Below are positions 32,689-53,417 of a stretch of DNA of 64,000 bases, in pieces. Position numbers and translations under genes: made by a program. The DNA is from Terriglobia bacterium (GTDB lineage: Bacteria; Acidobacteriota; Terriglobia; 20CM-2-55-15). The notes under the pieces are model-generated. The model did not search any database. It was not told the DNA's origin and saw nothing but the letters and a program-made list of their open reading frames with translations. The first letter of the stretch is position 1. Each line of letters starts with the position of its first letter. Location of the stretch: contig CAXWPJ010000002.1 of assembly GCA_963664115.2 (NCBI GenBank), positions 864,001 through 928,000 on the forward strand, given 5' to 3'.

Positions 32689-32692
32689 CTAG

Positions 32693-34541
32693 TCCCAAAA
32701 CAAGCGCATAACCAGTCCGCCGAGGCCCAGTTCGCGCCGATAGAATTCGAGGCATAGAATCCCGTTCCCGGATGGCCTGTTCCAGGTATCGAGTTTCTGT
32801 TGAATCTGTTTCAGTTCAGCCTCGCTGGTGTTGGACGGTTGACAGAAACCGGGACCTCGATCGCCCGGGCTCAGAGTCATGATCGGGTCAACATCGCAGA
32901 GGCTGACGCAACACATCCACCCCGCGGAACAAGACCGGCAACCACCGGTTCCAGGCCAGGATCCGGAACAGAATGCGCCGCCCGGTGCGCACGAGTTGGC
33001 ACGGCACAAGCATGAAAGCGTTCAAGAAGGTTTTGAACTCCATGCGCAGCACGGTTTGCTTCTCAGCCTGATATTTTTGGCCCCAACGTCCGGTTTCGGG
33101 AAGCAGCAATGCAAACCACGCTTTCAGTGTCCAGGCCAGTGACGCGATCACCATGTAGGCCCAGTTGCTGGTCTGATCTCCGACCGGCATCCGCAACGCC
33201 TGAACGCCGTTCTTCAACTGCTCAATGAGATTCTCCTGATTGCACCGTTGATTGGCACGCATCACAATCTGGTCGGCCGGATCCGAACGGTTGGTAATGT
33301 AGAAGAAGTACCGGATGTCGTCAAACAACACCTGCTCTCCTTTGGCCACCGACAGATTCTTCCGCACCACGACGACACGGTAGTCCCGATCGCAGGCTCC
33401 GGGTCGATACCGAAACTCGGCCACATCCTCACCCTGCAAGCGGATATTGTCGAAACCGCGCTGCCGAACGATCTCTTCCTTCACGTTGTCGGGACGTTGG
33501 CGCGGTTCGGTCGCCACGTCGTATTTCGCGGGCCGTTCCAGGCGCTTCCACTGGCGCGGCTCCAGTTCATCGGCCCGGGCCTTCAGGTTCGCCATCGCGT
33601 CAATCCCGAATATGAAACCCACCTGCTGGTCGTCCCATCCGTCCAGATGCCGGGTCTGGCTGAAGTCCGTGTCCCCGCGCAGCAGGATCTGGCGAAACCC
33701 CGCATGCCGGCACAATGCGATGGCTTGGTCGAACCGGACCGCGGCTCCTTCATGCGACGGCCGGTTGCCGCTACGATTGACCAGATACAGCGGTTCGGCG
33801 GTGTTGGCCAGCGAGATCATCAGCGGGTGATATCCCCACGTCCCGTCGTAGGCCACGTCCATCCCTTGCTTGCATTCCCCCGTGGTTTCGGCCAGTGTCC
33901 CGTCCGCGTCCAACACCGCTTCTTCGAAAAACGCCGCCGGTTGCTGTCGCCAGACTCCGAGCCGGACTTGATTGGTTGCCTCCATCAGACACTCCACGTC
34001 GTCGGCCTCGAATCTCCGGCAGAAGTCTCCCGCCGTCGTCGGATCCGGAATCCGTTGCGCTCCCAGCGCATCCAGATACACCGCATCGTTGCGCCGCAGT
34101 TCGATGTCTTCCAGGCACGTTCCTCCGCTCAAGGCGTTGTAGGCGATGTTCAGCACGTGATCCGACTCGTGATACGGCAGGTGCCGCTTCAACACATGCA
34201 CGCCCTTGTCGATGGCTTCGATCAGCCCGGTCCGCCGCGCCACCAGTTGCATCGTCCCGATACCACCAACCGATGTGCCCCGCGTCCGCTCTCCCATCTC
34301 GTACTGAATGTTGCTCGCCGAAAACATCGGCTCTACCTGATCCGTCCAATGCCGGTCCCCAAGCCGACGTTCGATTCGCCGCTTGCGGTTCCTCATGTTC
34401 TTGCGCGTATAATCGTTCATCTGAAATGCCTCCTTTTCCGAAGAATCTGTTCAAGGTTTTTTTCGCACGGAGAGGGGGCATTTCGGGTACTTCCGCTCTT
34501 ATTGCACTATCATTTCCTCGTCAATCACGCTTGTTCAGGGT
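32693..34541 (-). mobile_element. IS1380-family insertion sequence, copy 1 (1849 bp)
   Basis: IRs CCCAAAACAAGCG / CCCTGAACAAGCG, CTAG on both sides; repeated at offset +17277. Confidence 0.92.
32888..34420 (-). CDS. IS1380 family transposase
   Basis: LDADGT, GYHPL, LRGDTDF, RCNQENLIEQLKNG; 510 aa. Confidence 0.9.
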   Translation of the reverse strand: MNDYTRKNMRNRKRRIERRLGDRHWTDQVEPMFSASNIQYEMGERTRGTSVGGIGTMQLVARRTGLIEAIDKGVHVLKRHLPYHESDHVLNIAYNALSGGTCLEDIELRRNDAVYLDALGAQRIPDPTTAGDFCRRFEADDVECLMEATNQVRLGVWRQQPAAFFEEAVLDADGTLAETTGECKQGMDVAYDGTWGYHPLMISLANTAEPLYLVNRSGNRPSHEGAAVRFDQAIALCRHAGFRQILLRGDTDFSQTRHLDGWDDQQVGFIFGIDAMANLKARADELEPRQWKRLERPAKYDVATEPRQRPDNVKEEIVRQRGFDNIRLQGEDVAEFRYRPGACDRDYRVVVVRKNLSVAKGEQVLFDDIRYFFYITNRSDPADQIVMRANQRCNQENLIEQLKNGVQALRMPVGDQTSNWAYMVIASLAWTLKAWFALLLPETGRWGQKYQAEKQTVLRMEFKTFLNAFMLVPCQLVRTGRRILFRILAWNRWLPVLFRGVDVLRQPLRC

Positions 34542-34584
34542 CTAGTCGCGCACACGAGTTTCCGTCCAAACAACAACTCCTGTT

Positions 34585-38253: not shown

Positions 38254-38742
38254 TTACTCGGTCTGGGGAAGGTCCCCGATCAACACAGCGACTTCGTCCA
38301 ACAGAATATTGTTCTTCGTCATGTACTGGACTTCACGAACGAAGGCGTAGGCGTTGCCGCTCAGTGCGGCAACAGCGAGGATCGTGTGTATCCAGACCGG
38401 TAGCACCCGCGTATCGACGCCACCGCCGATTATCCATGCGGCCATCGTGAAAAGAATGGCCATGGTTGCCGGAGGAAAAACCCGGGATTTAAACTCCCGC
38501 GTTCGACGGATGAATTCAGGAGCCTGAGGATGTGAACCGAGGAGATCCTTTGCCTGCTTGGCGGTACCGATGAAGTAAAACATCGACATACACTGCGCCA
38601 AAATCGTGACGAATGTTGCAAAGAGGGCAAATAGAAAGTGTTGCCCCAGTCCGATCCGGCCGTCTATGGCGAAGCCCAGGTAAACCGTGACCGTGAGGCT
38701 GGCGATTCCCATCAATGAACTGGTTAAAAGTGCTAGGACCAT
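38254..38742 (-). CDS. Conserved hypothetical membrane protein (4 TM)
   Basis: Four hydrophobic segments and a MFYFIGT motif; start uncertain. Confidence 0.65.
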   Translation of the reverse strand: MVLALLTSSLMGIASLTVTVYLGFAIDGRIGLGQHFLFALFATFVTILAQCMSMFYFIGTAKQAKDLLGSHPQAPEFIRRTREFKSRVFPPATMAILFTMAAWIIGGGVDTRVLPVWIHTILAVAALSGNAYAFVREVQYMTKNNILLDEVAVLIGDLPQTE

Positions 38743-38910
38743 AAGTTTTGCTAGTTTCTGCTTCGAGATTCTACCATGTCCGATCACCGGAGGAATCGTC
38801 CCCCGAAGTCGACCATCAGTTCGACGGAAAGCACAATCTATGGGTGTTATATGGAACGGATTGTCGAAGTTATTGTGTACATCCATTCACTCATGGTATG
38901 AAGGAAGACG

Positions 38911-39591
38911 ATGCGGCGACTTCTGATCATGATGATCTTGATCGCGATGACCTCGGCGTGTGCGAAGCGCGCTCAAGTGCAGCTCCCGGGTCCCATCCCC
39001 AATCCGGGTGTCGTGATGGCATCCTCTGAGGGCGCGGCAGTCGATGGCCGTGCAAGTTATTACGGAGATCCCTACCATGGCCGGGCGACGGCCAACGGCG
39101 AGACCTTCGACAAGAACAAAATGACCGCGGCACACCGGACCTTACCATTCAACACCTGGGTTCGTGTCGAGAATCAGTTGAACAGGAGGAAGGTTGACGT
39201 TCGGATCAACGATCGTGGCCCCTTCGTGGGTGGGCGTCTGATCGACCTTTCCGAAGGAGCCGCGCGCGAGATCGACATGATCCGGTCCGGCGTCGCTCCA
39301 GTGCGCTTGGAGATCATCAAAGAGGCCCCAGCAGCGACCGGCGGGCGCGCCATCACCGAGGATGTGTTTTACGTCATCCAACTCGGTGCGTTCGGCAGCG
39401 AGCAAGCCGCGCAAGAGGTGAGGCGTCGATTCGAACCCAAGTACACCGGCATATACGTGGATCGTCCAACGGGCGACAGCCCCCTCTACAAAGTCCGTAT
39501 CGGACGATCCCTGCTCAGGGAAGCCCGCTTCATCCAGGATTTGCTCAAACGCGAAGACAACGTCGACGCGATTGTCGTCCAGATGAATTAG
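38911..39591 (+). CDS. rlpA: Septal ring lytic transglycosylase RlpA with SPOR domain
   Basis: Lipobox [31 protein letters not shown]. Confidence 0.9.
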
Positions 39592-39604
39592 TTCGTCTTT
39601 TTGT

Positions 39605-39695
39605 TAACACGAAGACAACGAAGTTCAACGAAGGGTCACGAAGAATTCTATTTTCTGAAGAATGATTACTTTGTGATCTTCGTGCCTTCGTGTTG
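39605..39695. repeat. Inverted array of (c/a)acgaag units
   Basis: cacgaag-aacgaag-aacgaag-cacgaag ... ctttgtg-cttcgtg-cttcgtg between convergent genes. Confidence 0.6.
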
Positions 39696-39872
39696 AAGAT
39701 CTCTACTTGCAGGAATTCGGAGCTTCCTGAAGATCTCGCCGATCTTTAGGCTCTCATCGATCCCGTTATACCTTAATCACCGCCGCAGGATGTGAGTCGT
39801 TTCAAGTACGTTGAAGTTCTGGCAGGGCCCCCTGCGCACGCACTGGGCTCGCTTTTGATGGAATGGAAGCGA

Positions 39873-40616
39873 TCAGGAGTGGGTCGGATCACACCGAAGG
39901 AACTCGGGTAAATCGTTGGAGGCACCGTTCTCGCCCGTTGCATTCAGAGTAATGATCGGCCAACCGCGAGCCTTCGCAGCCCGACGGAGGCGGTTCGTTG
40001 GATTCGTTGCCACGGGATGCCCGGTCTGAGATAGCATCGGAATGTCGGCCGAACTGTCCGAGAATGCGCATGAAGCCTTCAGGTCCAGATCTTCGGCCTT
40101 GGCATACAAGCGAATGATGGCGGCCTTTTCGTCTCCCACGACCAGTCGCGGAAGGACTTTGCCCGTGGCTACGTGATCCAGGAACTCCAGGCGATTGCAG
40201 ATGATCTCGTCAAATCCGAGCTGCAGAGCGATCGGGCGCACCGTGAAATCCAGGTCACCGGTGACCAGGACGTTGCGGTAACCCAGTTCGCGGGTCCGGC
40301 GGACCAGGGCTTCCGATCCCGCATAAATGGAAGGCTTAAGAGTGACTTCAAATAGATCGTCGGCCAGGCCGATGAGGCGGTCCCGGTGCATTCCCCGGTA
40401 GGCCCGGAACAAGAACACATTGAAAGACTTTCGCGAATAGAGATCCAGAACGAAGAATATCGGGACCTTTATAAGCACGTTCAGAAACTTGAAGATCGAT
40501 TTCAGGATCGACCTGTCGTTTCGGGCATAGTAGGCATACGTCATGACGAGATTACACGACAGCAGAGTGCCGTCCAGATCGAAAAACGCCGCCTTTTTAT
40601 GTTTTTCCGTGTCCAA
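39873..40616 (-). CDS. HAD-IB family phosphatase
   Basis: AAFFDLDGTL (motif I), LVTG, conserved K, FSDSSAD, NP; TTG start. Confidence 0.88.
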   Translation of the reverse strand: MDTEKHKKAAFFDLDGTLLSCNLVMTYAYYARNDRSILKSIFKFLNVLIKVPIFFVLDLYSRKSFNVFLFRAYRGMHRDRLIGLADDLFEVTLKPSIYAGSEALVRRTRELGYRNVLVTGDLDFTVRPIALQLGFDEIICNRLEFLDHVATGKVLPRLVVGDEKAAIIRLYAKAEDLDLKASCAFSDSSADIPMLSQTGHPVATNPTNRLRRAAKARGWPIITLNATGENGASNDLPEFLRCDPTHS

Positions 40617-40642
40617 TCTACTGCGACCTCAAAATTCGAATG

Positions 40643-41437
40643 TTACACCAGACCCTGACCTCGCCGCCGATTAATGAATCGGACCAGAGCCGGGATCCAA
40701 GCCGCGGGAAGAAGTCGGACGACAAAAACGAAAATGCGGTTGAAGAATCCAGGAACGACGATGTGCGTTCCGCGGAGAGTCTCGACGTAGGCCACTCGGC
40801 CAGCGGCCTCGGCCGTCATGCCCGAGCGGCTGTTTCTTTCCGAAATACCTGCGCGGGAACGAAACTCGGTCTGTGTGACACCGGGGCAAAATAGGGTCAC
40901 GGTCACGCCCGTCTTCCTCAACTCGTTGGCCAGAGAAGACGAGAACGAAAGCAAGAACGCTTTCGAGGCCGCATACACGGACTGTAGTGGGACCGGAGAG
41001 AAAGAGTATACGGACGCCACGAACAGAAGCCGTCCCCTGCCGCGTGAGATCATGGCGGGCAACACCGTCCGGGTGAGTGTCAGCGTGGCCGTGAGCTGTA
41101 CATTCAGGAGGTCGATATTCTCGTCAATTGAGGTCGAAGCGAACGAGCCCTGGATGCCAAAGCCTGCGTTATTGACCAGCACCTCGTAAGTGTAGGGTTT
41201 GGACCCGAGCGCGGCGACCAGGCTCTCGACACCCTCTCGGGTGGACAAGTCTGCGGGAACGACTTCGGTTTCGACACTGTGTCTGCGGGCACATTCGGCG
41301 GCGACTTCGGCCAGAGCTACCTCGTTCCGGCCCGTGAGAAACAGATTGAAGCCCCCGGCCGCGAACTCAGAGGCCAGCGCTTTCCCGATCCCGGACGAAG
41401 CACCTGTGATAACCGCCCACTTCGAATCCGCACTCAT
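40643..41437 (-). CDS. SDR family NAD(P)-dependent oxidoreductase
   Basis: TGASSGIG, NNAG, YAASK; ATGA overlap with the AGPS-like gene. Confidence 0.92.
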   Translation of the reverse strand: MSADSKWAVITGASSGIGKALASEFAAGGFNLFLTGRNEVALAEVAAECARRHSVETEVVPADLSTREGVESLVAALGSKPYTYEVLVNNAGFGIQGSFASTSIDENIDLLNVQLTATLTLTRTVLPAMISRGRGRLLFVASVYSFSPVPLQSVYAASKAFLLSFSSSLANELRKTGVTVTLFCPGVTQTEFRSRAGISERNSRSGMTAEAAGRVAYVETLRGTHIVVPGFFNRIFVFVVRLLPAAWIPALVRFINRRRGQGLV

Positions 41438-43266
41438 CGAATCTCCGGATCTTGATTACCCGCGCCGAAAAGGTTCGAAGGATCCAGAGTCTTCTTCAGC
41501 TCGCGTTTCCATTGAAGCGCCGTCTCAGACATGATTCGCGGCAGGTATGCCTGCCGGAGTTTGCCCACCCCATGATGGTGCGACAGAGACCCACCGGCCT
41601 TCAAAATTTCGTCGCGTGCGGCGTCCTCCAATTCGAGATAGATCTTCTGCGGATCGGGAATCCCCTTGTAGTAGAAGCCGAAGTAGAAATAAATGCAGAC
41701 CCCGGTGCGGTAGACCTGTGTTACGCGCGCGGTGACGTAGGGCTTGCCGGGTAATCCCCGGCCCTCGTACTCGTCGATGAGGCGCCGTTTCACGTTGTCG
41801 ATAAGCCCGAGCGCACCGCTCCAGGACACGGAGGTCTCGAAAGACTCTGCGATAACGTAGTAACTCATGAGAAAGTCACGGATGTATGCGATGCTGAACG
41901 TCAGCTGATAGCCGCGCCTGCCGTTCTCGCTACCGGCCGCCATTCCCCCATGACGGGTGGCGATTCGATAGAGATCGCGCTGCTGCTGAGACACTTCCGA
42001 ACGAGAGCCTTCAAACACAAGCGTGCATGCCACCATCTTCTCAGGCTGAAACCCTTTGATCCGGGTAACGTAGAATCGTTGCGCTCTGCTCTTCAACACC
42101 GCTATTCCGGCTGCCCCGGCTGCCGGCTTCAATGCAAGTCCGAACTGAAACTGAAGGTTGTCCACCAGACGCACACTGGCTGGAGGGGTGGCTTCGCGCG
42201 CCAGGTCGTACATGAAGCCGAATCCGTCTTCGAAGGTCGGGAACAGGACCGATCCATACTCCTGCTTGTCCGGCAAGCTGAATATCTTCACGATTGCTGA
42301 AGTAATGATTCCAAGCGTGCCTTCCGAACCGAACATCAATTGACGCAGGTCGGAACCGACCGACTCACGCGGCGACACGCCCGTCCGCTCAAGAGCGCCG
42401 GAAGCCGTCGCAACCTTCACATCGAGCACTATGTCTTCAATATTGCCGTACCGATTCTTCTTCATGCCGCTGGCATTGGTCGCAATCCAACCGCCGAGCG
42501 TGGAAAATTCGACGCTGTCGGGTTCGTGGCCCATCGTGACACCGTACTTTTCCAGTTCCGCCACGATGCGACGCCCCGGGGCTCCCGCCTCGACGCAGGC
42601 CATCATGTTCTTGCGATCGACCCAGACGACCCGGTTCAAGCGGCTCATGTCGACTGAGACGATAGTGCGCTGCTCGTCCTCTCGACAGCGAAGGGCATCG
42701 GTCACGTTTGTGCCACCGCCATAGGGGATCAGCGAAACATCGTGCCTCTTCGCGGCGTCGACCAGGCTTGCGACCTGATCCTCGTCTTGCGGGTACACCA
42801 CGAGATCCGGGATGCGACCCAAATCGGCATACTTGATGGCATACATTTCTTCCTGGGTGTGGCCGTGTCCGTGCCGCAGCCGTACTTCACCGCTGGATTC
42901 GATTTGATCCGCCTTCAGGAACTCACCGATCGCGGACAGAAACCCTGGAGCGCTCCGCGGCGGCGGAATGGTGGGGGGGTAGTTTGGGGCGTTGAATTCT
43001 TTGGGGTCGACATCCACACCGAGGACCTTTCTCACCCAGGGCAAAAACCGCGGCAACTCCTGTCCACTGAGCTCATATCGGGTTCCACGGATGACGACGT
43101 GACCGTTCTCATTGAAATCAAAACGGGTGTCGCGAAATCCCCAGACATCAAGGCTTTCAGCTTCACTCGCGTCGTCCGCAGCTGGCGTTTCGGGAAATAT
43201 CAGGGAGCCGTCGTCATCAGCGCTCTCGGCGGCGATGGGGCGGGGAGGTGTGTTGTCCAGACTCAA
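41434..43266 (-). CDS. Alkyl-dihydroxyacetonephosphate synthase (AGPS/ADAS) homolog, FAD-binding
   Basis: HGHGHTQEE, IPYGGGTNV, GHEPDSVEFSTLGGW..NASGMKKNRYGNIED, PASVRLVDNLQFQFG, GYQLTFSIAYIRD, ESFETS, RVTQVY..GVCIYFYF, GGSLSHHHGVG. Start reassigned to TTG 43266. Confidence 0.88.
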   Translation of the reverse strand: MSLDNTPPRPIAAESADDDGSLIFPETPAADDASEAESLDVWGFRDTRFDFNENGHVVIRGTRYELSGQELPRFLPWVRKVLGVDVDPKEFNAPNYPPTIPPPRSAPGFLSAIGEFLKADQIESSGEVRLRHGHGHTQEEMYAIKYADLGRIPDLVVYPQDEDQVASLVDAAKRHDVSLIPYGGGTNVTDALRCREDEQRTIVSVDMSRLNRVVWVDRKNMMACVEAGAPGRRIVAELEKYGVTMGHEPDSVEFSTLGGWIATNASGMKKNRYGNIEDIVLDVKVATASGALERTGVSPRESVGSDLRQLMFGSEGTLGIITSAIVKIFSLPDKQEYGSVLFPTFEDGFGFMYDLAREATPPASVRLVDNLQFQFGLALKPAAGAAGIAVLKSRAQRFYVTRIKGFQPEKMVACTLVFEGSRSEVSQQQRDLYRIATRHGGMAAGSENGRRGYQLTFSIAYIRDFLMSYYVIAESFETSVSWSGALGLIDNVKRRLIDEYEGRGLPGKPYVTARVTQVYRTGVCIYFYFGFYYKGIPDPQKIYLELEDAARDEILKAGGSLSHHHGVGKLRQAYLPRIMSETALQWKRELKKTLDPSNLFGAGNQDPEIR

Positions 43267-43358
43267 GGGGCCAATTCTAATACAAGAGGGCGGTGCGCGA
43301 CAGTTTATCAGATGCCGAGGCGTTACCGCAGCTCGATTGCCGCTCCCCTGCGATTCTG

Positions 43359-43720
43359 TTACTCGAATGTGATTCGGTCGATCATCGGGGGGTCTTGATC
43401 CCCGAATTGGCGATGGACAACGTAGATATAATCGCCTACGGCCGCTCCCGTCGTCGATTGCCCTTCGTACGTTGCAACGCCGGCCACTTCCCCCGACATC
43501 CATCCGTCGTTATTCGTCAACGCCACGACACCGGCACCGCTATTGAATACGATAGCCAAGCGTGCGTCCGCCGCCCATACGAGTCCGTCGGGGCCGGCCA
43601 CGGGTTCGGCTAGATTCACCTGTCGCGTTTCAGCTGGATCGTCCATAGGCATTTTGTAAATATTTCCGCTGCCTATCACCAACAGATAGCCGTCCGGATG
43701 GTGAACGATACCGTTCAGGG
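43359..43720 (-). pseudogene. 5-prime-truncated SMP-30/gluconolactonase-like beta-propeller gene
   Basis: LNGIVHHPDGYLLV...GPDGLVW...TTGAAVGDYIYVV. It overlaps the radical SAM 3-prime end in another frame and has no N-terminal half. Confidence 0.6.
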
Positions 43721-44673
43721 CTGACCCTTCCATTGACAGGCTGGCACTTGGCACCCTGAATGACATTCAACTCGTCCATGCGTCGCCGTATACCCAGCAT
43801 GACTTCGTTGCGCGTCTTGCCCCAGTCGGGGGCGACGAGTAAGCTGAGGGGTGCTTCACCGAAAAGTCGCTCGATGACGATAGAAGGTTTGAGGCGCTCT
43901 ACGAATTCGCAGATCAAATCAAGATATTCCTCGAAGCTCATCAGAGGGAAGGGCTGCTCAAGGTATTCTCGAGCCATCGCCGTGCCGCGCACAATGTGCA
44001 GATGATGAATTTTGAGGGAATCAATGCCGACTCGCGACATTTCATCCGCCATAGAGAGCCATTGATCGCGGGTTTCCCATGGAAAGCCCAGAATCAGGTG
44101 TGCGGCGGTATGAAATGCCCGGCCGCGTGTGAGCTCCATCGCACGGATGAACGCGCTGTAGTCATGCCCCCGATTGATTCTCTGAAGAGTGTCGTCGTAG
44201 ATTGACTCCACACCGAATTCCAGTGAGACCAAGGTCTTCTGGGCGATCGTGTCGATCATTTCTATCTTTGCTTCGTCCACGCAATCGGGCCGTGTCCCTA
44301 TCGCCAGACCGACGACATCAGGATGTTCCAGCGCCTCGGTGTACAGCGCGCGCAGGTAATGGGTGTCGGCGTAAGTATTTGAGAACGGCTGAAAGTAGAC
44401 GATGAATTTGCGGGCTCCGATCCTCTTGCGCAGGTAGGCGATTCCCTTGGCAACCTGTTCGTGGATTGGTGCCGTCTTTATGGCGAGCGGAGGGCGGAAC
44501 GAGCTGTTGTTGCAGTAGGTACATCCACCCACCGCTACCGTGCCGTCCCGGTTGGGGCATGTGAAACCCGCGTCTACGATGACCTTGTGGACACGTTCAC
44601 CAAACCGCCCCTGCAGCCAATGGTTGTATGTCCGGTAGCGGTCAGTTTTTCCAGCGACTCCCGGGGTCGTCAT
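43630..44673 (-). CDS. yhcC: TIGR01212 family radical SAM protein (YhcC-like)
   Basis: DAGFTCPNRDG...GGCTYC, YFQPFSNTY, IGTRPDC, RINRGH, LKIHHLHIVRGT. The C-terminal tail looks aberrant and the start is uncertain. Confidence 0.88.
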   Translation of the reverse strand: MTTPGVAGKTDRYRTYNHWLQGRFGERVHKVIVDAGFTCPNRDGTVAVGGCTYCNNSSFRPPLAIKTAPIHEQVAKGIAYLRKRIGARKFIVYFQPFSNTYADTHYLRALYTEALEHPDVVGLAIGTRPDCVDEAKIEMIDTIAQKTLVSLEFGVESIYDDTLQRINRGHDYSAFIRAMELTRGRAFHTAAHLILGFPWETRDQWLSMADEMSRVGIDSLKIHHLHIVRGTAMAREYLEQPFPLMSFEEYLDLICEFVERLKPSIVIERLFGEAPLSLLVAPDWGKTRNEVMLGIRRRMDELNVIQGAKCQPVNGRVSPERYRSPSGRLSVGDRQRKYLQNAYGRSS

Positions 44674-46500: not shown

Positions 46501-47433
46501 TCACGGAACGAACATGCGGATGGCGGTGGGGAGAACGGTAATTTCCAGAGGGAGTTGTCCCAAAGGTTCGCCGTCGATTTCGATTCTGGTCGTATGCGGG
46601 GATTTTGCCGCCAGCTGTTTCACACGGCTGTGGTGGATTTTCGGGTGGTCATAGATCTGCCCATTGAAGAGGATGCGGCTATTTCGGATGATTTCCAAAA
46701 GCGAAAGCTTTTCGATCAGCGTCACGTCGAGGAATCCGTCGTTCGGAATGGCCCGCGGACAGATGTGCATTCCGGCCCCGTGGTACTGGCCGTTTCCAAC
46801 GGCAACGTTCGCGATTCGGAATTTGCGCCATTCGCCGCCGTCTGCCTGAATTGATACGTCATTCCCCCTGAAGCCGAGACCTGTAATTGCCGTTGCCGTT
46901 AAGAAAGCCGCCCTACCTCCCAAAGGCTTGGACGAGCGGTTGGCTCGTTCCGCAACCGCCCCACCCATGCCGAAGCTCGTAATATTGAGCGCGTACCGGG
47001 TTCGGTTCGCGCCCGTCGTATCCTGAAAAACAACGCGCATGGCATCAAGAACAGCGGTCTCGCCACGATCGATAACGCCGATGGCCTCGTCTTCACTAAG
47101 AGGCAGATTTACGGTTCGACGGAAGTCCGAACCCGTTCCCTGGGGAATGAGTCCCAGAGTCACGGTGGTATTCGGAGCACCTTCCGACAGGATTCCGTTG
47201 ACGGTTTCGTTCAGTGTCCCGTCTCCGCCTACTATGATTATCGTGCTGTAGCCCGATCGAACGGCTTCCTCGGACAACTCGATCGTATGTCCGGCGGATT
47301 CGGTCTGCATCACGTCAATTCGAGGACATGCCAGTGCGAGCTTGGCCTGGATTCTGCTCCAGTTGCGGCCGGTCTTTCCGTTGGCGGATTGCGGATTGAC
47401 GATAACGGCTACGGGTTGTCCATCGCTTTGCAT
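46501..47433 (-). CDS. Diacylglycerol kinase family lipid kinase (YegS/DgkB-like)
   Basis: NPQS, GGDGT, GTGSDF, NGQYHGAG, DGFLD, IDGE. Confidence 0.9.
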   Translation of the reverse strand: MQSDGQPVAVIVNPQSANGKTGRNWSRIQAKLALACPRIDVMQTESAGHTIELSEEAVRSGYSTIIIVGGDGTLNETVNGILSEGAPNTTVTLGLIPQGTGSDFRRTVNLPLSEDEAIGVIDRGETAVLDAMRVVFQDTTGANRTRYALNITSFGMGGAVAERANRSSKPLGGRAAFLTATAITGLGFRGNDVSIQADGGEWRKFRIANVAVGNGQYHGAGMHICPRAIPNDGFLDVTLIEKLSLLEIIRNSRILFNGQIYDHPKIHHSRVKQLAAKSPHTTRIEIDGEPLGQLPLEITVLPTAIRMFVP

Positions 47434-47666
47434 CAACTGTTCGTTCGGAGAAAGGCCACGGTGTTAACGATCTGTCTGTCGAGATTGTCACCCCTGATCG
47501 TTTCGATCCTCGCGTTGTTCTCTTATGGTGAAGCGACGCGGCACTGGGGGCGCAGCCGTCGGTCCCTGAATCTTTCTATGGATTGTTCAAGGAGAGAGTC
47601 GATCACATGGCGACCAACAATCCTGTAGCGCCCGTGACCAGAATGCGTTTAATCGGAACAGACGTT

Positions 47667-49274
47667 TCATGAAACAGGGATGTTGATGGACTGCTCCAGG
47701 GCCTTCATCTGCTTGGCGAACATGGGGCGAATCCACCGTTCAATGCCCTTGGTGTGGATATTGACCCAGTAGTCGGCCCAATCGATATCTTCAGGAGTCC
47801 ACTGAAGGCGTTCCTGGTCTTTTGGTGTAAGCAAGTTGTAGGCGCGCCGAATGTTTCCGGTTTCGAAAATGAAGCTGTTATGCACCATGAAAGGAAGGAA
47901 TTTATCCAGAGTTTGTTCCTGCTGTCGCAGTTGCCGACGCGTGATTCTCAGGTTCCGCAAATAGGAGTTCATGATGCGTGATCCGAGAATCACCTTCAAG
48001 AAGTTGAACGTCGCCTGGATCAAGTCCAGCCCCCAACGTACTCGCTTGCGGCTTGCCGCCAGTTGGGAAACGCTTACGACTTCGGTTTCGACGTAGGCCT
48101 TCCAGACATTGGCAAGCTTGTTGCCGCTTGTCTTGTGTTTGTGCTTGTAACGGGAATTTGTTCCCAGAAATCCGACCAGACGCGGCAGCATGATGGGATT
48201 GTCGGCAGCTGTCGCCAGGTGGTACACCGTCTCACCGCGGTCGGCCAGCACCGCAGCCGTCGCGATGAGGATGCCGGCGGCTATCAGGTCGACCGGAATA
48301 ATCTCCAGCGATCCGTCCTTCCTGACCGGCCACGCTTTGACCCCTTCACCGCCCATCAGGACCAGGGGCGCCGACGTTGTCATTCCCTCATTCCAACCGG
48401 GAAATGGGAACGCGAGCGAGGATTCGACGATCGCAGGTCGCACGATGCAGTACTTCAAACCCTCTGTGCGGGCGATGAGCTGTTCGCCCATGCTTTTCGC
48501 ATAGGTGTAGGTATTGATCCATCCCCAGTGCTCCGCCCGCTCCATACCGCCGTCCCGGAGCAATATTTTGTCTTCGGTTTCTCCGATGAATTGTTCGCAC
48601 CACTCGAGTTCACGCGTGACGTCGAATCGACGGTCTTCGGGCCCTTCGCGTCCGGGGTAGTAACCGACGATCGGTGTATCTTCCGGAATACGGCCACTCT
48701 TCTTGCCTCCGACGTAGCAGGTCGAGATATGGACGAGTTTGGCATCGAGCACCTGTACCAGTTCGATCAGATTTTGGATGCCGTATACGTTCGTGATGAG
48801 AGATTCGTTTAGCGGTGGATCGAACTCCACCAACCCCGCCGAATTGATGACGACGTCTACCGTGTCGGTGAGTGCGGCCAGTTGCTCGGCCCGGATGCCA
48901 CACATGGGGGCGCTCAGATCGCCTTCTACAATGGAGGTGCGGTGCCGGATCGAGTCCACACCTATGCGTTCCACAATCGCCTGAAGGGGAGGGGATTTGA
49001 GTATTTCGTTGAGGAAACGCTGTTCACCCGAGACGTTCTTTTTAGGCCTGACCTGTATGATGAGGTGCCTCAGTTCCGGGAATCGGTCCAGCATCATGGC
49101 CAGCAGGACTTTCCCGACGAATCCCGTCCCACCCAGCAAAAGAATCGTTTTACTTCGGAATTGATCGATGGCAGAGATTTCTCCGGTACCTCGAGGGCGT
49201 CTGGTGTCGGTAGGGACGTATTGACCCTGGACAGGGTCAAAACGCCACGAGGAGAGTTGGCCTTCGTCGCTCAT
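47667..49274 (-). CDS. Fatty acyl-CoA reductase (male-sterility/NAD_binding_4 extended SDR)
   Basis: GGTGFVGKV, NSAGLVEFD, HISTCYV, GWINTYTYAKSMGE, RPAIVESS..PFPGWNEG, IPVD, IDWADY. Confidence 0.85.
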   Translation of the reverse strand: MSDEGQLSSWRFDPVQGQYVPTDTRRPRGTGEISAIDQFRSKTILLLGGTGFVGKVLLAMMLDRFPELRHLIIQVRPKKNVSGEQRFLNEILKSPPLQAIVERIGVDSIRHRTSIVEGDLSAPMCGIRAEQLAALTDTVDVVINSAGLVEFDPPLNESLITNVYGIQNLIELVQVLDAKLVHISTCYVGGKKSGRIPEDTPIVGYYPGREGPEDRRFDVTRELEWCEQFIGETEDKILLRDGGMERAEHWGWINTYTYAKSMGEQLIARTEGLKYCIVRPAIVESSLAFPFPGWNEGMTTSAPLVLMGGEGVKAWPVRKDGSLEIIPVDLIAAGILIATAAVLADRGETVYHLATAADNPIMLPRLVGFLGTNSRYKHKHKTSGNKLANVWKAYVETEVVSVSQLAASRKRVRWGLDLIQATFNFLKVILGSRIMNSYLRNLRITRRQLRQQEQTLDKFLPFMVHNSFIFETGNIRRAYNLLTPKDQERLQWTPEDIDWADYWVNIHTKGIERWIRPMFAKQMKALEQSINIPVS

Positions 49275-49969
49275 ATGGGTGTCTGGGTCGCTTCCATCGC
49301 TTGCGGGCCGGACCCGAGAAACGGTGGGAACGGGTTGAAATCGTCAGCTTGGTCCGAACCGCTGAGGCTAATGATGGGCCACTGTTTGCCCTTCGCGAAT
49401 CGACGCAGCCGGCGCGTGGGGTTGGTCGCGACTGGATTTCCTGTAGCCGTCAGCATGGGAATGTCTGATGTGCTGTCAGAGAATGCGCAGCATGCATTTA
49501 GATCGAGATTCTCCAATTCCGCGTAGGCCATTATGATCGTGGCTTTCGCGGTCTCCGCCACTAACGGGGCAAGAACTCTTCCTGTAGCGATGTGCTTCTT
49601 GAACTCAAGGCGGTTGCAGATCACGTCGTCGACACCCAAATGCAAGGCGATGGGCCGGACCGTGAAGTCGAGGGCCCCGGTAACGAGGACAGTGCGGTAG
49701 CCCAGTTTTCGGGTCTGACGGACCAGAGCTTCAGAATGGGTGTAAATCGAAGGTTTCAATGTGACCTCGAAGAGATCGTCCGCGAGTCCTACGAGCCGGT
49801 CCCGATGCATGCCGCGATACGCTCGAAAGAAGAACATGTTGCACAAGGTCGGCGAATAGAGATCCAGCCCAAGAAAAAGTGGGACACTGGTCAGCACCTT
49901 CACAAACTGATTGATCGACTTGAAGACAAACCGATCGTTGCGGGCGTAGTAGGCGCAGGTCGTGACTAG
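49271..49969 (-). pseudogene. HAD-IB phosphatase paralog 5-prime-truncated by IS1380
   Basis: Closely similar to 39873..40616 from LVxTxAYYARNDR onward; the DxDGT motif I is replaced by IS sequence. Confidence 0.85.
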
Positions 49970-51818
49970 GCCCAAAACAAGCGCATAACCAGTCCGCCGA
50001 GGCCCAGTTCGCGCCGATAGAATTCGAGGCATAGAATCCCGTTCCCGGATGGCCTGTTCCAGGTATCGAGTTTCTGTTGAATCTGTTTCAGTTCAGCCTC
50101 GCTGGTGTTGGACGGTTGACAGAAACCGGGACCTCGATCGCCCGGGCTCAGAGTCATGATCGGGTCAACATCGCAGAGGCTGACGCAACACATCCACCCC
50201 GCGGAACAAGACCGGCAACCACCGGTTCCAGGCCAGGATCCGGAACAGAATGCGCCGCCCGGTGCGCACGAGTTGGCACGGCACAAGCATGAAAGCGTTC
50301 AAGAAGGTTTTGAACTCCATGCGCAGCACGGTTTGCTTCTCAGCCTGATATTTTTGGCCCCAACGTCCGGTTTCGGGAAGCAGCAATGCAAACCACGCTT
50401 TCAGTGTCCAGGCCAGTGACGCGATCACCATGTAGGCCCAGTTGCTGGTCTGATCTCCGACCGGCATCCGCAACGCCTGAACGCCGTTCTTCAACTGCTC
50501 AATGAGATTCTCCTGATTGCACCGTTGATTGGCACGCATCACAATCTGGTCGGCCGGATCCGAACGGTTGGTAATGTAGAAGAAGTACCGGATGTCGTCA
50601 AACAACACCTGCTCTCCTTTGGCCACCGACAGATTCTTCCGCACCACGACGACACGGTAGTCCCGATCGCAGGCTCCGGGTCGATACCGAAACTCGGCCA
50701 CATCCTCACCCTGCAAGCGGATATTGTCGAAACCGCGCTGCCGAACGATCTCTTCCTTCACGTTGTCGGGACGTTGGCGCGGTTCGGTCGCCACGTCGTA
50801 TTTCGCGGGCCGTTCCAGGCGCTTCCACTGGCGCGGCTCCAGTTCATCGGCCCGGGCCTTCAGGTTCGCCATCGCGTCAATCCCGAATATGAAACCCACC
50901 TGCTGGTCGTCCCATCCGTCCAGATGCCGGGTCTGGCTGAAGTCCGTGTCCCCGCGCAGCAGGATCTGGCGAAACCCCGCATGCCGGCACAATGCGATGG
51001 CTTGGTCGAACCGGACCGCGGCTCCTTCATGCGACGGCCGGTTGCCGCTACGATTGACCAGATACAGCGGTTCGGCGGTGTTGGCCAGCGAGATCATCAG
51101 CGGGTGATATCCCCACGTCCCGTCGTAGGCCACGTCCATCCCTTGCTTGCATTCCCCCGTGGTTTCGGCCAGTGTCCCGTCCGCGTCCAACACCGCTTCT
51201 TCGAAAAACGCCGCCGGTTGCTGTCGCCAGACTCCGAGCCGGACTTGATTGGTTGCCTCCATCAGACACTCCACGTCGTCGGCCTCGAATCTCCGGCAGA
51301 AGTCTCCCGCCGTCGTCGGATCCGGAATCCGTTGCGCTCCCAGCGCATCCAGATACACCGCATCGTTGCGCCGCAGTTCGATGTCTTCCAGGCACGTTCC
51401 TCCGCTCAAGGCGTTGTAGGCGATGTTCAGCACGTGATCCGACTCGTGATACGGCAGGTGCCGCTTCAACACATGCACGCCCTTGTCGATGGCTTCGATC
51501 AGCCCGGTCCGCCGCGCCACCAGTTGCATCGTCCCGATACCACCAACCGATGTGCCCCGCGTCCGCTCTCCCATCTCGTACTGAATGTTGCTCGCCGAAA
51601 ACATCGGCTCTACCTGATCCGTCCAATGCCGGTCCCCAAGCCGACGTTCGATTCGCCGCTTGCGGTTCCTCATGTTCTTGCGCGTATAATCGTTCATCTG
51701 AAATGCCTCCTTTTCCGAAGAATCTGTTCAAGGTTTTTTTCGCACGGAGAGGGGGCATTTCGGGTACTTCCGCTCTTATTGCACTATCATTTCCTCGTCA
51801 ATCACGCTTGTTCAGGGT
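49970..51818 (-). mobile_element. IS1380-family insertion sequence, copy 2
   Basis: Same length and identical translated ORFs as copy 1 apart from the first base (G vs T); CTAG at 49966-49969 and 51819-51822. Confidence 0.92.
50165..51697 (-). CDS. IS1380 family transposase
   Basis: Protein identical to 32888..34420. Confidence 0.9.
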   Translation of the reverse strand: MNDYTRKNMRNRKRRIERRLGDRHWTDQVEPMFSASNIQYEMGERTRGTSVGGIGTMQLVARRTGLIEAIDKGVHVLKRHLPYHESDHVLNIAYNALSGGTCLEDIELRRNDAVYLDALGAQRIPDPTTAGDFCRRFEADDVECLMEATNQVRLGVWRQQPAAFFEEAVLDADGTLAETTGECKQGMDVAYDGTWGYHPLMISLANTAEPLYLVNRSGNRPSHEGAAVRFDQAIALCRHAGFRQILLRGDTDFSQTRHLDGWDDQQVGFIFGIDAMANLKARADELEPRQWKRLERPAKYDVATEPRQRPDNVKEEIVRQRGFDNIRLQGEDVAEFRYRPGACDRDYRVVVVRKNLSVAKGEQVLFDDIRYFFYITNRSDPADQIVMRANQRCNQENLIEQLKNGVQALRMPVGDQTSNWAYMVIASLAWTLKAWFALLLPETGRWGQKYQAEKQTVLRMEFKTFLNAFMLVPCQLVRTGRRILFRILAWNRWLPVLFRGVDVLRQPLRC

Positions 51819-52290
51819 CTAGCGGCTCTCGACATCCACGGTGACCCCGTCTGGAAGCTGCTCGATTGCCTGCTTCAACGGGACCTTATAAAAACATCTG
51901 CAACCCTGTATCCCTATAGAATATAGATCAAAGTTGAAGGGACGACACCAAGTTCTTCGACAAGATGCGAAAAATTTGCGGGTGCGGATTTCCGAATCTG
52001 TATCGCAGCCAGGTAAGATTCCCGCCAATTTAGTTTGAAACTATGGGAGTCTGACGATATGAGAAATGATTCTCAACTCCTGAAAATTAAGATGTGGGAA
52101 GTCGAAAAACCCCAATATTTGGCCCATTTCTCAACTTCCTACGATGTCGTTTCTCAGGACCGGAGAATTTAATAGCGCCCAATTCTCTCCCTTAGTATTC
52201 TTTACCGAATTGTTCAGGGCTAGTTCAGAGGTGGACCCCATACGTTGGACAGCTTGGCAGCCAATTTAAGGTGGATTCCGCGGTTCATGT

Positions 52291-53139
52291 TTATGCTGCC
52301 GAGGTCAGTGGCCGTGTTCCCGCGTAGGCTTCGCTCGGCGTGAGATCGTCGAGTTTGGAATGCGGGCGGTCGTTATTGTAATAGTTCATCCAGACACCTA
52401 TGTGGTGCCGGGCATCTTTGAAGTCACTGAAGGCGTTTAGATAAACGCATTCGTATTTGATCGAGCGCCATAGGCGTTCGATGAAAACGTTGTCGATCCA
52501 TTGCCCCTTGCCGTCCATGGAGATCCGGATACCTCGTTCTTTAAGTCGGTCGGTCCAGGCCTTGCTGGTGAACTGGCTGCCCTGATCGGTGTTGAAGATT
52601 TCCGGACTGCCGTATTCCTCGATCGCCTCGTCGAGGGCTTCAAGGCAAAACGTCGTGTCCTGGGTGTTGGACAGCCGCCAGGACAACACCTTCCGCGTAT
52701 GCCAGTCCATGATCGCGACCAGATATAAGAATCCGTGCGCCATCGGGATATACGTCACGTCGGTAGACCACGCTTGATTCGCCCGCTCCACGGCAATGTC
52801 GTTGAGTAGATATGGGTACACCGGATGAGCCGGGTTTCTCCGGGACGTCTGCGGTGCCACCGAGCGCAGCCCCATCAACCGCATTAGTCGGCGTACCCGC
52901 TTCCGGCCCACATCGTAGCCGAGACGTTTCAGATGACGCGTCATCTGCCTGGACCCATACCAGGGCATCTTCAGATACGCCTCGTCGATCACGCGCATCA
53001 GGTCCAGATTGCGATCACTCTCACCCCGTGGCCGATAGTACCAACTCGAACGGCTCAACCCGATCAAGTCGCATTGCCGGACCACACTGAGCTGCTCATG
53101 GCCCGGTTCGACCACCTTGCGCCTTCGACCCAAGCTCAT
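52291..53139 (-). CDS. IS3 transposase OrfB (DDE)
   Basis: WSTDVTYI, NTDQGSQF, IERLWRSIKYE, RPHS; -1 frame relative to OrfA. Confidence 0.92.
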   Translation of the reverse strand: MSLGRRRKVVEPGHEQLSVVRQCDLIGLSRSSWYYRPRGESDRNLDLMRVIDEAYLKMPWYGSRQMTRHLKRLGYDVGRKRVRRLMRLMGLRSVAPQTSRRNPAHPVYPYLLNDIAVERANQAWSTDVTYIPMAHGFLYLVAIMDWHTRKVLSWRLSNTQDTTFCLEALDEAIEEYGSPEIFNTDQGSQFTSKAWTDRLKERGIRISMDGKGQWIDNVFIERLWRSIKYECVYLNAFSDFKDARHHIGVWMNYYNNDRPHSKLDDLTPSEAYAGTRPLTSAA

Positions 53140-53417
53140 CGATTGAAGGCTCGTGCTAAAAAATCCCGTTCCACGACCAGTTCACCGATCTTGGCCTGCA
53201 GGTCTTTGATCTCGTCCTCGTGGTTCCGGGCCGATGGATCCCGGCCTCGCTGGAATCCTTCTTTAACGCTATCAAGCGCATCACGCTTCCACTTCGTGAT
53301 CATGTTCGGATGGATCTTGTACCGCGCCGCCAATTCGGCCATCGTGCCGTCGCCACGCATCGCGGCCAGCGCTACCTTCGCTTTGAAATCTGCTGAAAAA
53401 TTCCGTCGTTTCGCCAT
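53136..53417 (-). CDS. IS3 transposase OrfA (HTH)
   Basis: RRNFSADFKAKVAL...KIGELVVERDFL; T6 run at 53158-53163 is a candidate frameshift site. Confidence 0.9.
   Translation of the reverse strand: MAKRRNFSADFKAKVALAAMRGDGTMAELAARYKIHPNMITKWKRDALDSVKEGFQRGRDPSARNHEDEIKDLQAKIGELVVERDFLARAFNR

Follow-up and report, generated by a model that had tools for sequence, protein, structure and literature searches.

The 64,000-nucleotide window analysed here (positions 864,001 to 928,000 of contig CAXWPJ010000002.1, in our numbering G000:C2:864001-928000) comes from the Terriglobia bacterium assembly GCA_963664115.2, a genome of 4.9 Mb that is 97% complete and is called G000 below. On its minus strand lies a gene for alkyl-dihydroxyacetone phosphate (alkyl-DHAP) synthase, AGPS, followed by a gene of the short-chain dehydrogenase/reductase (SDR) family. 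Around this pair are relatives of the elb ether-lipid genes of Myxococcus xanthus, namely HAD phosphatase genes, a fatty acyl reductase (FAR) gene and the decayed start of elbE, together with a variant PlsY and a lipid kinase (Table 1). Here we describe the AGPS protein and weigh the place that AGPS and the SDR may hold in this cluster.

Table 1 Features of the AGPS-containing cluster, by position in the window (ORF, open reading frame)
Position	Strand	Feature	Basis or remark
39873..40616	minus	HAD-IB phosphatase, second elbB-like copy, with AGPS-SDR	TIGR01490 over cut-off; 65% to other copy; within 4.2 kb segment
40643..41437	minus	Classical SDR, likely acyl/alkyl-DHAP reductase	PF00106; 4-base overlap with AGPS stop
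41434..43266	minus	AGPS (alkyl-DHAP synthase), animal / MXAN_1676 type, 610 aa	Motifs, phmmer, tree, structure model
43359..43766	minus	135-aa ORF, may be bystander	No Pfam match; within 4.2 kb segment
45729..46313	plus	Variant PlsY, GFNN replacing GATN	Sole PlsY found in genome; candidate acyl-DHAP source
46501..47436	minus	YegS/DAGK-family lipid kinase	TIGR00147 over cut-off; kept with cluster in both versions
47466..47653	minus	Decayed 5' elbE remnant, frameshift then ~0.78 kb deletion	tblastn 50% over 56 aa, E 7e-13
47667..49274	minus	Stand-alone FAR (ElbD N-terminal / FAR type)	PF07993 over, PF03015 below cut-off; likely fatty alcohol supply
49271..49970	minus	elbB-like HAD, 5' end cut by insertion sequence	Abuts FAR where congener G003 carries elbC
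49965..51822	minus	DDE_Tnp_1_4 insertion sequence truncating HAD gene; outside pathway	Domain match

The AGPS gene is a single frame of 610 codons with a TTG start that matches the start in close relatives. The original prediction had quoted eight motif blocks as matching eukaryotic AGPS, and all eight are found in the translation: GHEPDSVEFSTLGGW (residues 246-260), ASGMKKNRYGNIED (265-278), PASVRLVDNLQFQFG (362-376), GYQLTFSIAYIRD (452-464), ESFETS (474-479), RVTQVY (514-519), CIYFYF (524-529) and GGSLSHHHGVG (558-568). The protein consists of the domains FAD_binding_4 and FAD-oxidase_C, and its top match, over the full length, is a characterised AGPS. In a phmmer search of the Protein Data Bank (PDB), the guinea-pig enzyme gives 562 bits (E 1e-167, residues 35-604) and the Dictyostelium enzyme 328 bits. 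Identity to named animal AGPS is 44-48% among the nine rows listed. The closest named orthologues belong to Terriglobia metagenome-assembled genomes (MAGs; 88% and 73-77% identity), and those of Myxococcota MAGs are 57-63% identical. From the resemblance to the Terriglobia loci and from the taxonomy in Dataset S5 of PMC13012113, the family of G000 is probably 20CM-2-55-15.

Counted along the phmmer alignment to guinea-pig AGPS, R366 is the equivalent of Arg419, Y526 of Tyr578, R463 of Arg515, H247 of His300 and H563-565 of His615-617. The active-site Tyr and Arg and the HHH loop named in the prediction are kept (Tyr578 is catalytic, Arg419 and Arg515 bind substrate), and the equivalents of all these residues are invariant in 10/10 alignment rows. 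The R419H and Y578F mutant structures depart from the wild type at exactly the columns of R366 and Y526. Arg419, Arg515 and Tyr578 are presumably the mammalian counterparts of R352, R447 and Y508 of Dictyostelium AGPS. These three Dictyostelium residues are described as important (PMC3509576), and His616/617 have been named as active-site residues of AGPS (PMC13019191). An AlphaFold model of the protein, built from a 10-row alignment with animal AGPS among the rows, has a pLDDT of 75; mammalian AGPS takes ranks 1-29 of a structure search with this model (TM 0.80-0.84), whereas dehydrogenases reach TM 0.59-0.63. As to the gating helix and lipid tunnel of the AGPS fold, a helix is predicted at residues 388-403, but the FAD-binding loops have a pLDDT below 50. 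Judged by sequence, residues, predicted fold and the trees described below, the product is an AGPS, and we have little doubt that it would show AGPS activity.

Both Pfam domains are common to AGPS and GlcD-type proteins, and JGI and NCBI label some relatives 'oxidase', which would suit an ordinary oxidoreductase of the GlcD or D-lactate dehydrogenase type. We reject this identity as scarcely credible: D-lactate dehydrogenase and glycolate oxidase reach at most 92 bits in the same PDB search, the NCBIfam GlcD model TIGR00387 scores 156 under a cut-off of 568, and the genome's own GlcD-like proteins, 24-30% identical to AGPS, form the outgroup of the tree. Maximum-likelihood trees with AGPS and FAD_binding_4 proteins place the protein with AGPS and away from GlcD and lactate dehydrogenases, so that the distinction drawn in the original prediction is upheld. 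In a quick tree of 81 rows the protein falls into an animal-type clade of 68 rows (SH-aLRT 100), where the successive nested groups around it are mostly bacterial (99), rich in Myxococcota (96) and finally rich in Acidobacteriota (100). A careful tree (LG+G4) of 28 rows hand-picked from the 81 agrees, with the animal type supported at 100/100. A long branch (0.9 changes per column, support 100/100) separates it from the Dictyostelium type, so that the 'animal/protist' AGPS first proposed combines two types. A recent transfer of the gene from a eukaryote, or a role of this lineage as the donor of animal AGPS, would find some favour in the identity to animal AGPS, in guinea pig outscoring Dictyostelium and in the position of the bacterial animal-type group among weakly supported eukaryote branches in both trees. 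We hold it to be very improbable in view of the Acidobacteriota-rich subclade inside the Myxococcota-rich bacterial group, of a gene GC content (0.58) and third-position GC content (GC3, 0.69) that match those of the neighbours, and of the presence of AGPS in 27/34 family relatives with a divergence parallel to that of FAR. Eukaryotic contamination or recent transfer is likewise rejected given the 1.1 Mb contig with bacterial neighbours, the matching GC and the family-wide orthologues.

The supposed relevance to the origin or transfer of eukaryotic AGPS is not supported by these trees, in which the protein nests among bacterial sequences near Myxococcota and not beside animals; it therefore has no special claim on that origin. 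The acidobacterial AGPS is not a special sister of animal AGPS, and because the branches among animal-type eukaryotes are weakly supported, transfer may have gone in either direction. Keeping the 10 eukaryote AGPS rows together is rejected in an approximately unbiased (AU) test (p-AU 5e-61; simple model, constraint group named after the first tree), and both P0217 and P0166 break the grouping. P0217, a single Dictyostelium-type eukaryote typed by motif, groups among bacterial 'type D' rows (n=1). Two AGPS types, each bacterial and eukaryotic in these small trees, may explain why a 2026 PNAS study describes the AGPS phylogenetic signal as too low (PMC13012113).

Several other AGPS proteins in these sets deserve mention. 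A second animal-type clade (L149-L167; 45-49% identity), present in 19 further Acidobacteriota genomes, has in most cases a different SDR after AGPS, and these 19 genomes do not overlap with the ElbC genomes described below. P0136, P0137, P0133 and P0140 are single-protein fusions of FAR, acyltransferase and AGPS (1725-2727 aa) and acyltransferase-AGPS fusions; the FAR-acyltransferase-AGPS fusions group with a eukaryotic transcriptome sequence in the 81-row tree, and one acyltransferase-AGPS fusion comes from a gammaproteobacterial MAG. P0269 joins a Dictyostelium-type AGPS-like domain and a glycerophosphate oxidase domain (DAO, DAO_C) in one protein, which hints at catabolism for some type D proteins. 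In L020 and L288 AGPS lies in three frames in a relative that is 68% complete, either as a broken gene or through sequencing error.

Relatives of G000 without AGPS keep the same cluster plus a Lar_N protein and an epimerase. The Lar_N protein can be assigned as ElbC because the genes run in the order elbA-B-C-D-E in loci L244 and L277, because it is 58% identical to the L277 copy and because MXAN_1529 of M. xanthus belongs to LarAH group 15. The elbA-E genes are MXAN_1531-1527 (PMC13012113), and MXAN_1529 is listed under LarAH group 15 in the supplement of PMC7583248. ElbC scores 815 against NF052592, which covers LarAH groups 14/15/16 (cut-off 740). No elbC was found in the genome of the window, and a search of plasmids for ElbC gave no match.

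AGPS and ElbC alternate across the relatives. Among 61 genomes, 29 carry AGPS, 13 ElbC, none both and 19 neither; within G000's own family exactly one of the two is present in 35/35 genomes (28 AGPS, 7 ElbC). FAR is found in 40/42 genomes with AGPS or ElbC, as against 0/19 of the others, and ElbE comes next after ElbC in 13/13 cases and occurs in one AGPS genome as well, G002. A class sample of 331 genomes, overlapping the 61 relatives and searched with E cut-offs of 1e-100 and 1e-60, contains AGPS in 32, ElbC in 45 and both in 0; the ElbC count includes the unpublished G497, G601, G641 and G693, and drops to 41 without them, the overlap still being 0. Family f4 has AGPS in 9 and ElbC in 27 of its 59 genomes. 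Both kinds of genome are found within the genera g1, g4, g7 and g297, the g7 ElbC genome grouping with g2 on a FAR tree. This tree, built from 44 rows with a FAR match >250 bits and without those genomes whose FAR was split or unfetched, implies 6 changes between the AGPS and ElbC states, 3 of them inside the own family. Counted by locus, ElbC is present in 0/78 AGPS loci and AGPS in 0/110 ElbC loci, of which 30 span just 1.5 kb on each side. Because they take no account of kinship, hypergeometric values of 0.002 (f4) and 1.5e-7 (own family) do not serve as tests here. LarC was considered as a marker of ElbC and proved uninformative, being present in 57/61 genomes. G000 too has it, at C2:21634-22899, although ElbC is missing; because LarC is retained without ElbC, another user of the nickel-pincer nucleotide may exist in this genome.

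The two genes also exchange at one position. In operons of the f4 type the order is TAAT-PlsY-AGPS-SDR-kinase in L026 and L299 and TAAT-PlsY-HAD-ElbC-ElbE-kinase in L212, L218, L227, L229, L292 and L300-L302, so that HAD-ElbC-ElbE and AGPS-SDR occupy the same place. A segment of 4.2 kb at about 39590-43750, with a HAD gene, the SDR, AGPS and one ORF, is present in the window and missing from the congener G003. G003 carries elbC at the join of HAD and FAR and also elbE, whereas in the window HAD and FAR join directly and 188 bases of elbE are left. These bases are 84% identical to the intact elbE of the congener G002, which retains the whole gene; the congener G004 retains a different piece. 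An ancestor with both modules that later lost one, or modules moving between kin, may each account for this pattern.

The partner gene keeps to the same division. The SDR accompanies AGPS in Terriglobia loci, and in ElbC genomes its top match is 36-41% identical or absent (5/5). In 78 named AGPS loci, whose contigs are often short, the neighbours are of the SDR family in 36, FAR in 20, PlsY in 12, HAD in 11 and kinase in 4. Two layouts can be told apart: in Myxococcota and others FARAT and an epimerase come after AGPS, and in Acidobacteriota AGPS is paired with the SDR and FARAT is absent. Among solved structures the SDR matched generic SDRs only, and its role as a reductase is for this reason proposed from context.

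Taken together, gene content and order suggest, with a probability of roughly 70%, that an animal-type AGPS and an SDR stand in for ElbC and ElbE in an elb-type ether-lipid cluster, the two pairs alternating across relatives. Because AGPS and ElbC alternate and swap at the same position, and because a remnant of elbE is left in the window, ElbC becomes a likely candidate for the ether-forming step of the elb pathway. Myxobacterial AGPS operons also hold an ElbE-like epimerase, and for this reason we set ElbC opposite AGPS and regard ElbE as the reductase. That the LarA-like ElbC catalyses the very step catalysed by AGPS, with ElbE as a reductase, has about even odds in our judgement. A further-reaching version falls somewhat short of that: AGPS-SDR and ElbC-ElbE would be interchangeable, unrelated solutions, ElbC a probable nickel-pincer ether synthase of the LarA fold, and the variant PlsY a DHAP acyltransferase unrelated to GNPAT.

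A number of observations pull the other way. The genomes are MAGs and kin of one another, so the alternation counts are not independent, and alternation could mean that the modules compete for a substrate, not that they form an identical product. M. xanthus carries both the AGPS and the elb routes (PMC9131029). In a phylum sample of 401 genomes (the unpublished G105 enters the tally only), AGPS-like genes occur in 39 and ElbC-like genes in 48, and the two coincide in 4 against 4.7 expected by chance; exclusion as a phylum-wide rule is rejected on this ground. The AGPS-like genes of the sample comprise 5 close ones, 19 of the second animal-type clade and 15 of type D, and the 4 dual genomes, all from a single genus in another class and with AGPS and ElbC on separate contigs, provide all the close-clade matches except G000. 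Given the dual genomes and M. xanthus, the exclusion is not general but holds where AGPS and ElbC share one FAR cluster. In the LarA family, a protein named LarAH15 epimerises gluconate (PMC11770544), in a numbering that may differ from the 2020 groups, and LarAH14 is reported as inactive in seven assays (PMC7583248).

These points would suit a reading in which the protein is a true AGPS and ElbC-ElbE turns the FAR and acyltransferase inputs that it shares with AGPS into another product, the modules competing and ElbC acting, for example, as a nickel-pincer epimerase or a redox shuttle on the glycerol backbone. LarA-family proteins of known activity are hydroxyacid racemases and epimerases, which agrees with such a role, as do the genomes with both genes. 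Yet M. xanthus with MXAN_1676 disrupted still yields ether lipids by the elb route, where elbC is described as 'of unknown function' and no enzyme is assigned to ether formation in that account (PMC9131029). MXAN_1529 keeps D72, H108, K184 and H200 and is without R75, H174 and K298, three residues of LarA needed for racemisation; where they are missing, a different hydride-mediated reaction is expected by the authors of PMC7583248. With the swap at one operon position added, a different product appears unlikely to us. Still less probable is a salvage or breakdown function, in which AGPS, SDR, HAD and kinase would serve the uptake of alkylglycerol, or a reverse exchange would free fatty alcohol from ether lipids of a host or the soil. 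The lipid kinase, the two HAD genes, the missing GNPAT and the glycerophosphate oxidase fusion P0269 could be read in this way, but the fusion belongs to the distant type, FAR is kept with the cluster as fits synthesis, and the genes replaced by the module belong to a biosynthetic cluster.

Sequences, residues, gene order and distribution are direct observations, and from them we infer the following route for the preferred reading, in which AGPS-SDR replaces ElbC-ElbE. FAR, judging by its family, would make the fatty alcohol, and the variant PlsY would supply acyl-DHAP, the weakest step. AGPS would then take the C1 proton of acyl-DHAP and form a flavin-N5 adduct; the fatty acid would leave and the alcohol add, with no net redox change. 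The FAD-N5 adduct mechanism is established for eukaryotic AGPS (PMC3509576). The SDR would reduce alkyl-DHAP to 1-O-alkyl-glycerol 3-phosphate, a step for which DHRS7B is the mammalian counterpart (PMC13200781, PMC11225845), and the HAD and the kinase may interconvert phosphorylated and free forms. CarF/PEDS1 (PF10520) was not found in G000, 97% complete, with control genomes positive in 5/5; the product would for this reason be an alkyl ether lipid rather than a plasmalogen.

As to the source of acyl-DHAP, GPAT_C/GNPAT gave no match in G000 (E. coli control positive), and because no GNPAT was found the variant PlsY is the most likely supplier. Among 59 PlsY rows, in which some genes appear twice, GF(N/R)N replaces GATN in 41, all from cluster genomes, and the remaining 18 have the usual form. 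A tie between the variant and AGPS itself was considered and rejected, PlsY following the FAR cluster in both versions. The glycerol-3-phosphate (G3P) enzyme GpsA was not found in 8/42 cluster genomes (2 of the 8 less than 90% complete) as against 0/19 others, and this negative result was confirmed with the C-terminal domain in 5/5 genomes. The pattern is compatible with a DHAP route. Glycerol kinase is present, however, in 4/5 of the GpsA-less genomes, and two f11 genomes have the ElbC cluster without any PlsY. The changed residues correspond to Ala40 and Thr41 of Aquifex PlsY, on the acyl-donor and not the acceptor side (PMC5700162), with the numbering matched through motif spacing. An initial suspicion that G000 is without GpsA was false; the genome has GpsA, two PlsX matches and one PlsY, which is the variant. 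Because G000 keeps GpsA and PlsX and has no other PlsY, the variant may be an ordinary G3P enzyme, and its identity as a DHAP acyltransferase is put forward only tentatively, at rather less than even odds. Alternatively, acyl-DHAP may come from the SDR oxidising lysophosphatidic acid, or from one of two A-T-AT proteins of G000 unlinked to the cluster (C9:249061-251739 and C7:97145-99754).

Two kinds of genome are of interest in this connection. G047 (L135), reported as 100% complete, has the variant PlsY, with neither GpsA nor glycerol kinase found, and makes the strongest case for lipid synthesis that starts without G3P. The ElbC clusters L290 and L291 (G049 and G057) hold a stand-alone acyltransferase between FAR and ElbE, and neither PlsY nor GpsA was found in these genomes. 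The two PlsX matches of G000 (C2:589960-590922 and C6:361956-362918) have equal scores and could be a duplication or an assembly repeat. Outside the pathway, the DDE_Tnp_1_4 insertion sequence has a second copy in the window at ~32689-34545 and 82 blastn matches genome-wide, most of those listed more than 99.7% identical, which indicates a recent burst. It is followed by an IS3-type element at 52291-53417. In relatives, a 210-aa membrane-like ORF (38254-38886, minus) that matches no Pfam or NCBIfam model keeps its place between RlpA and a methyltransferase.

Aerobic production of ether lipids in myxobacteria runs mainly through the elb pathway, which has been proposed for acidobacteria as well (PMC9131029). 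A known ether synthase that repeatedly replaces elbC-elbE names a candidate for the missing ether-bond enzyme, one that is testable genetically in M. xanthus. If the proposal is true, ElbC does on lipids what the flavin does in AGPS, and the variant PlsY would be a new entry enzyme completing the ether-lipid route. From the cluster one would also expect alkyl ether lipids in a Terriglobia family that is uncultured, a point of relevance to where the bacterial ether lipids of soils come from. No publication that connects ElbC with AGPS, or proteins of the LarA family with ether lipids, was found in a literature search that left out the PNAS appendix, the preprint supplements, Lorenzen 2014, Sinninghe Damste 2018 and Nenci 2012.

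An animal-type AGPS in a bacterium is in itself not new, because MXAN_1676 and seven rows of the window's own family are already published. Sequence and tree support the true AGPS of the original prediction, but as news it was anticipated by those entries, and the prediction passed over the neighbouring genes, where the more interesting result lies. The AGPS table of the 2026 PNAS study (Dataset S5) contains 4,239 rows with 45 mentions of Acidobacteriota and the seven rows of this family, and its GNPAT table has no Terriglobia row (PMC13012113). Homologues of agps are mentioned for Acidobacteriota (bioRxiv 10.64898/2026.06.23.733905), a preprint that also reports acidobacterial and poribacterial split ElbD variants, and for bacterial genomes generally (PMC13159169).

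The match to mammalian peroxisomal AGPS (EC 2.5.1.26; PDB 4BBY) covers 570 residues, with 41-44% identity when structurally aligned; unlike that enzyme, the protein of the window has no peroxisomal leader, and neither a GNPAT partner nor PEDS1/CarF was found in its genome. Dictyostelium AGPS (PDB 2UUU) and the bacterial 'type D' share the fold, the catalytic Tyr and the HHH loop at about 28-35% identity (Dictyostelium enzyme). MXAN_1676, about 42% identical to human AGPS, shows by eye the same motif blocks as the AGPS of the window (truncated M. xanthus rows of Dataset S5, PMC13012113); its deletion cuts ether lipids slightly, and the main route needs ElbD (PMC9131029). In the operon MXAN_1676-1675-1674, a FAR-GNPAT fusion and an epimerase-type gene come after AGPS, whereas in the window a classical SDR follows AGPS, FAR is a separate gene and the genome gave no GPAT_C match. 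ElbC belongs to a family (NF052592) whose fold and cofactor are unrelated to those of AGPS. Like the elbABCDE operon of M. xanthus, the window has an elbB-like HAD, an ElbD-type FAR and a remnant of elbE; it differs in that elbC is absent, elbE is decayed, AGPS-SDR is present instead, and a variant PlsY and a lipid kinase are added. Of the ElbD domains FAR, A, T and AT, the window holds FAR, and the two unlinked A-T-AT proteins of the genome may or may not be ElbD orthologues. The AGPS itself is ordinary, and the new part is its gene context, an AGPS-SDR pair in an elb-type cluster without GNPAT, alternating with ElbC.

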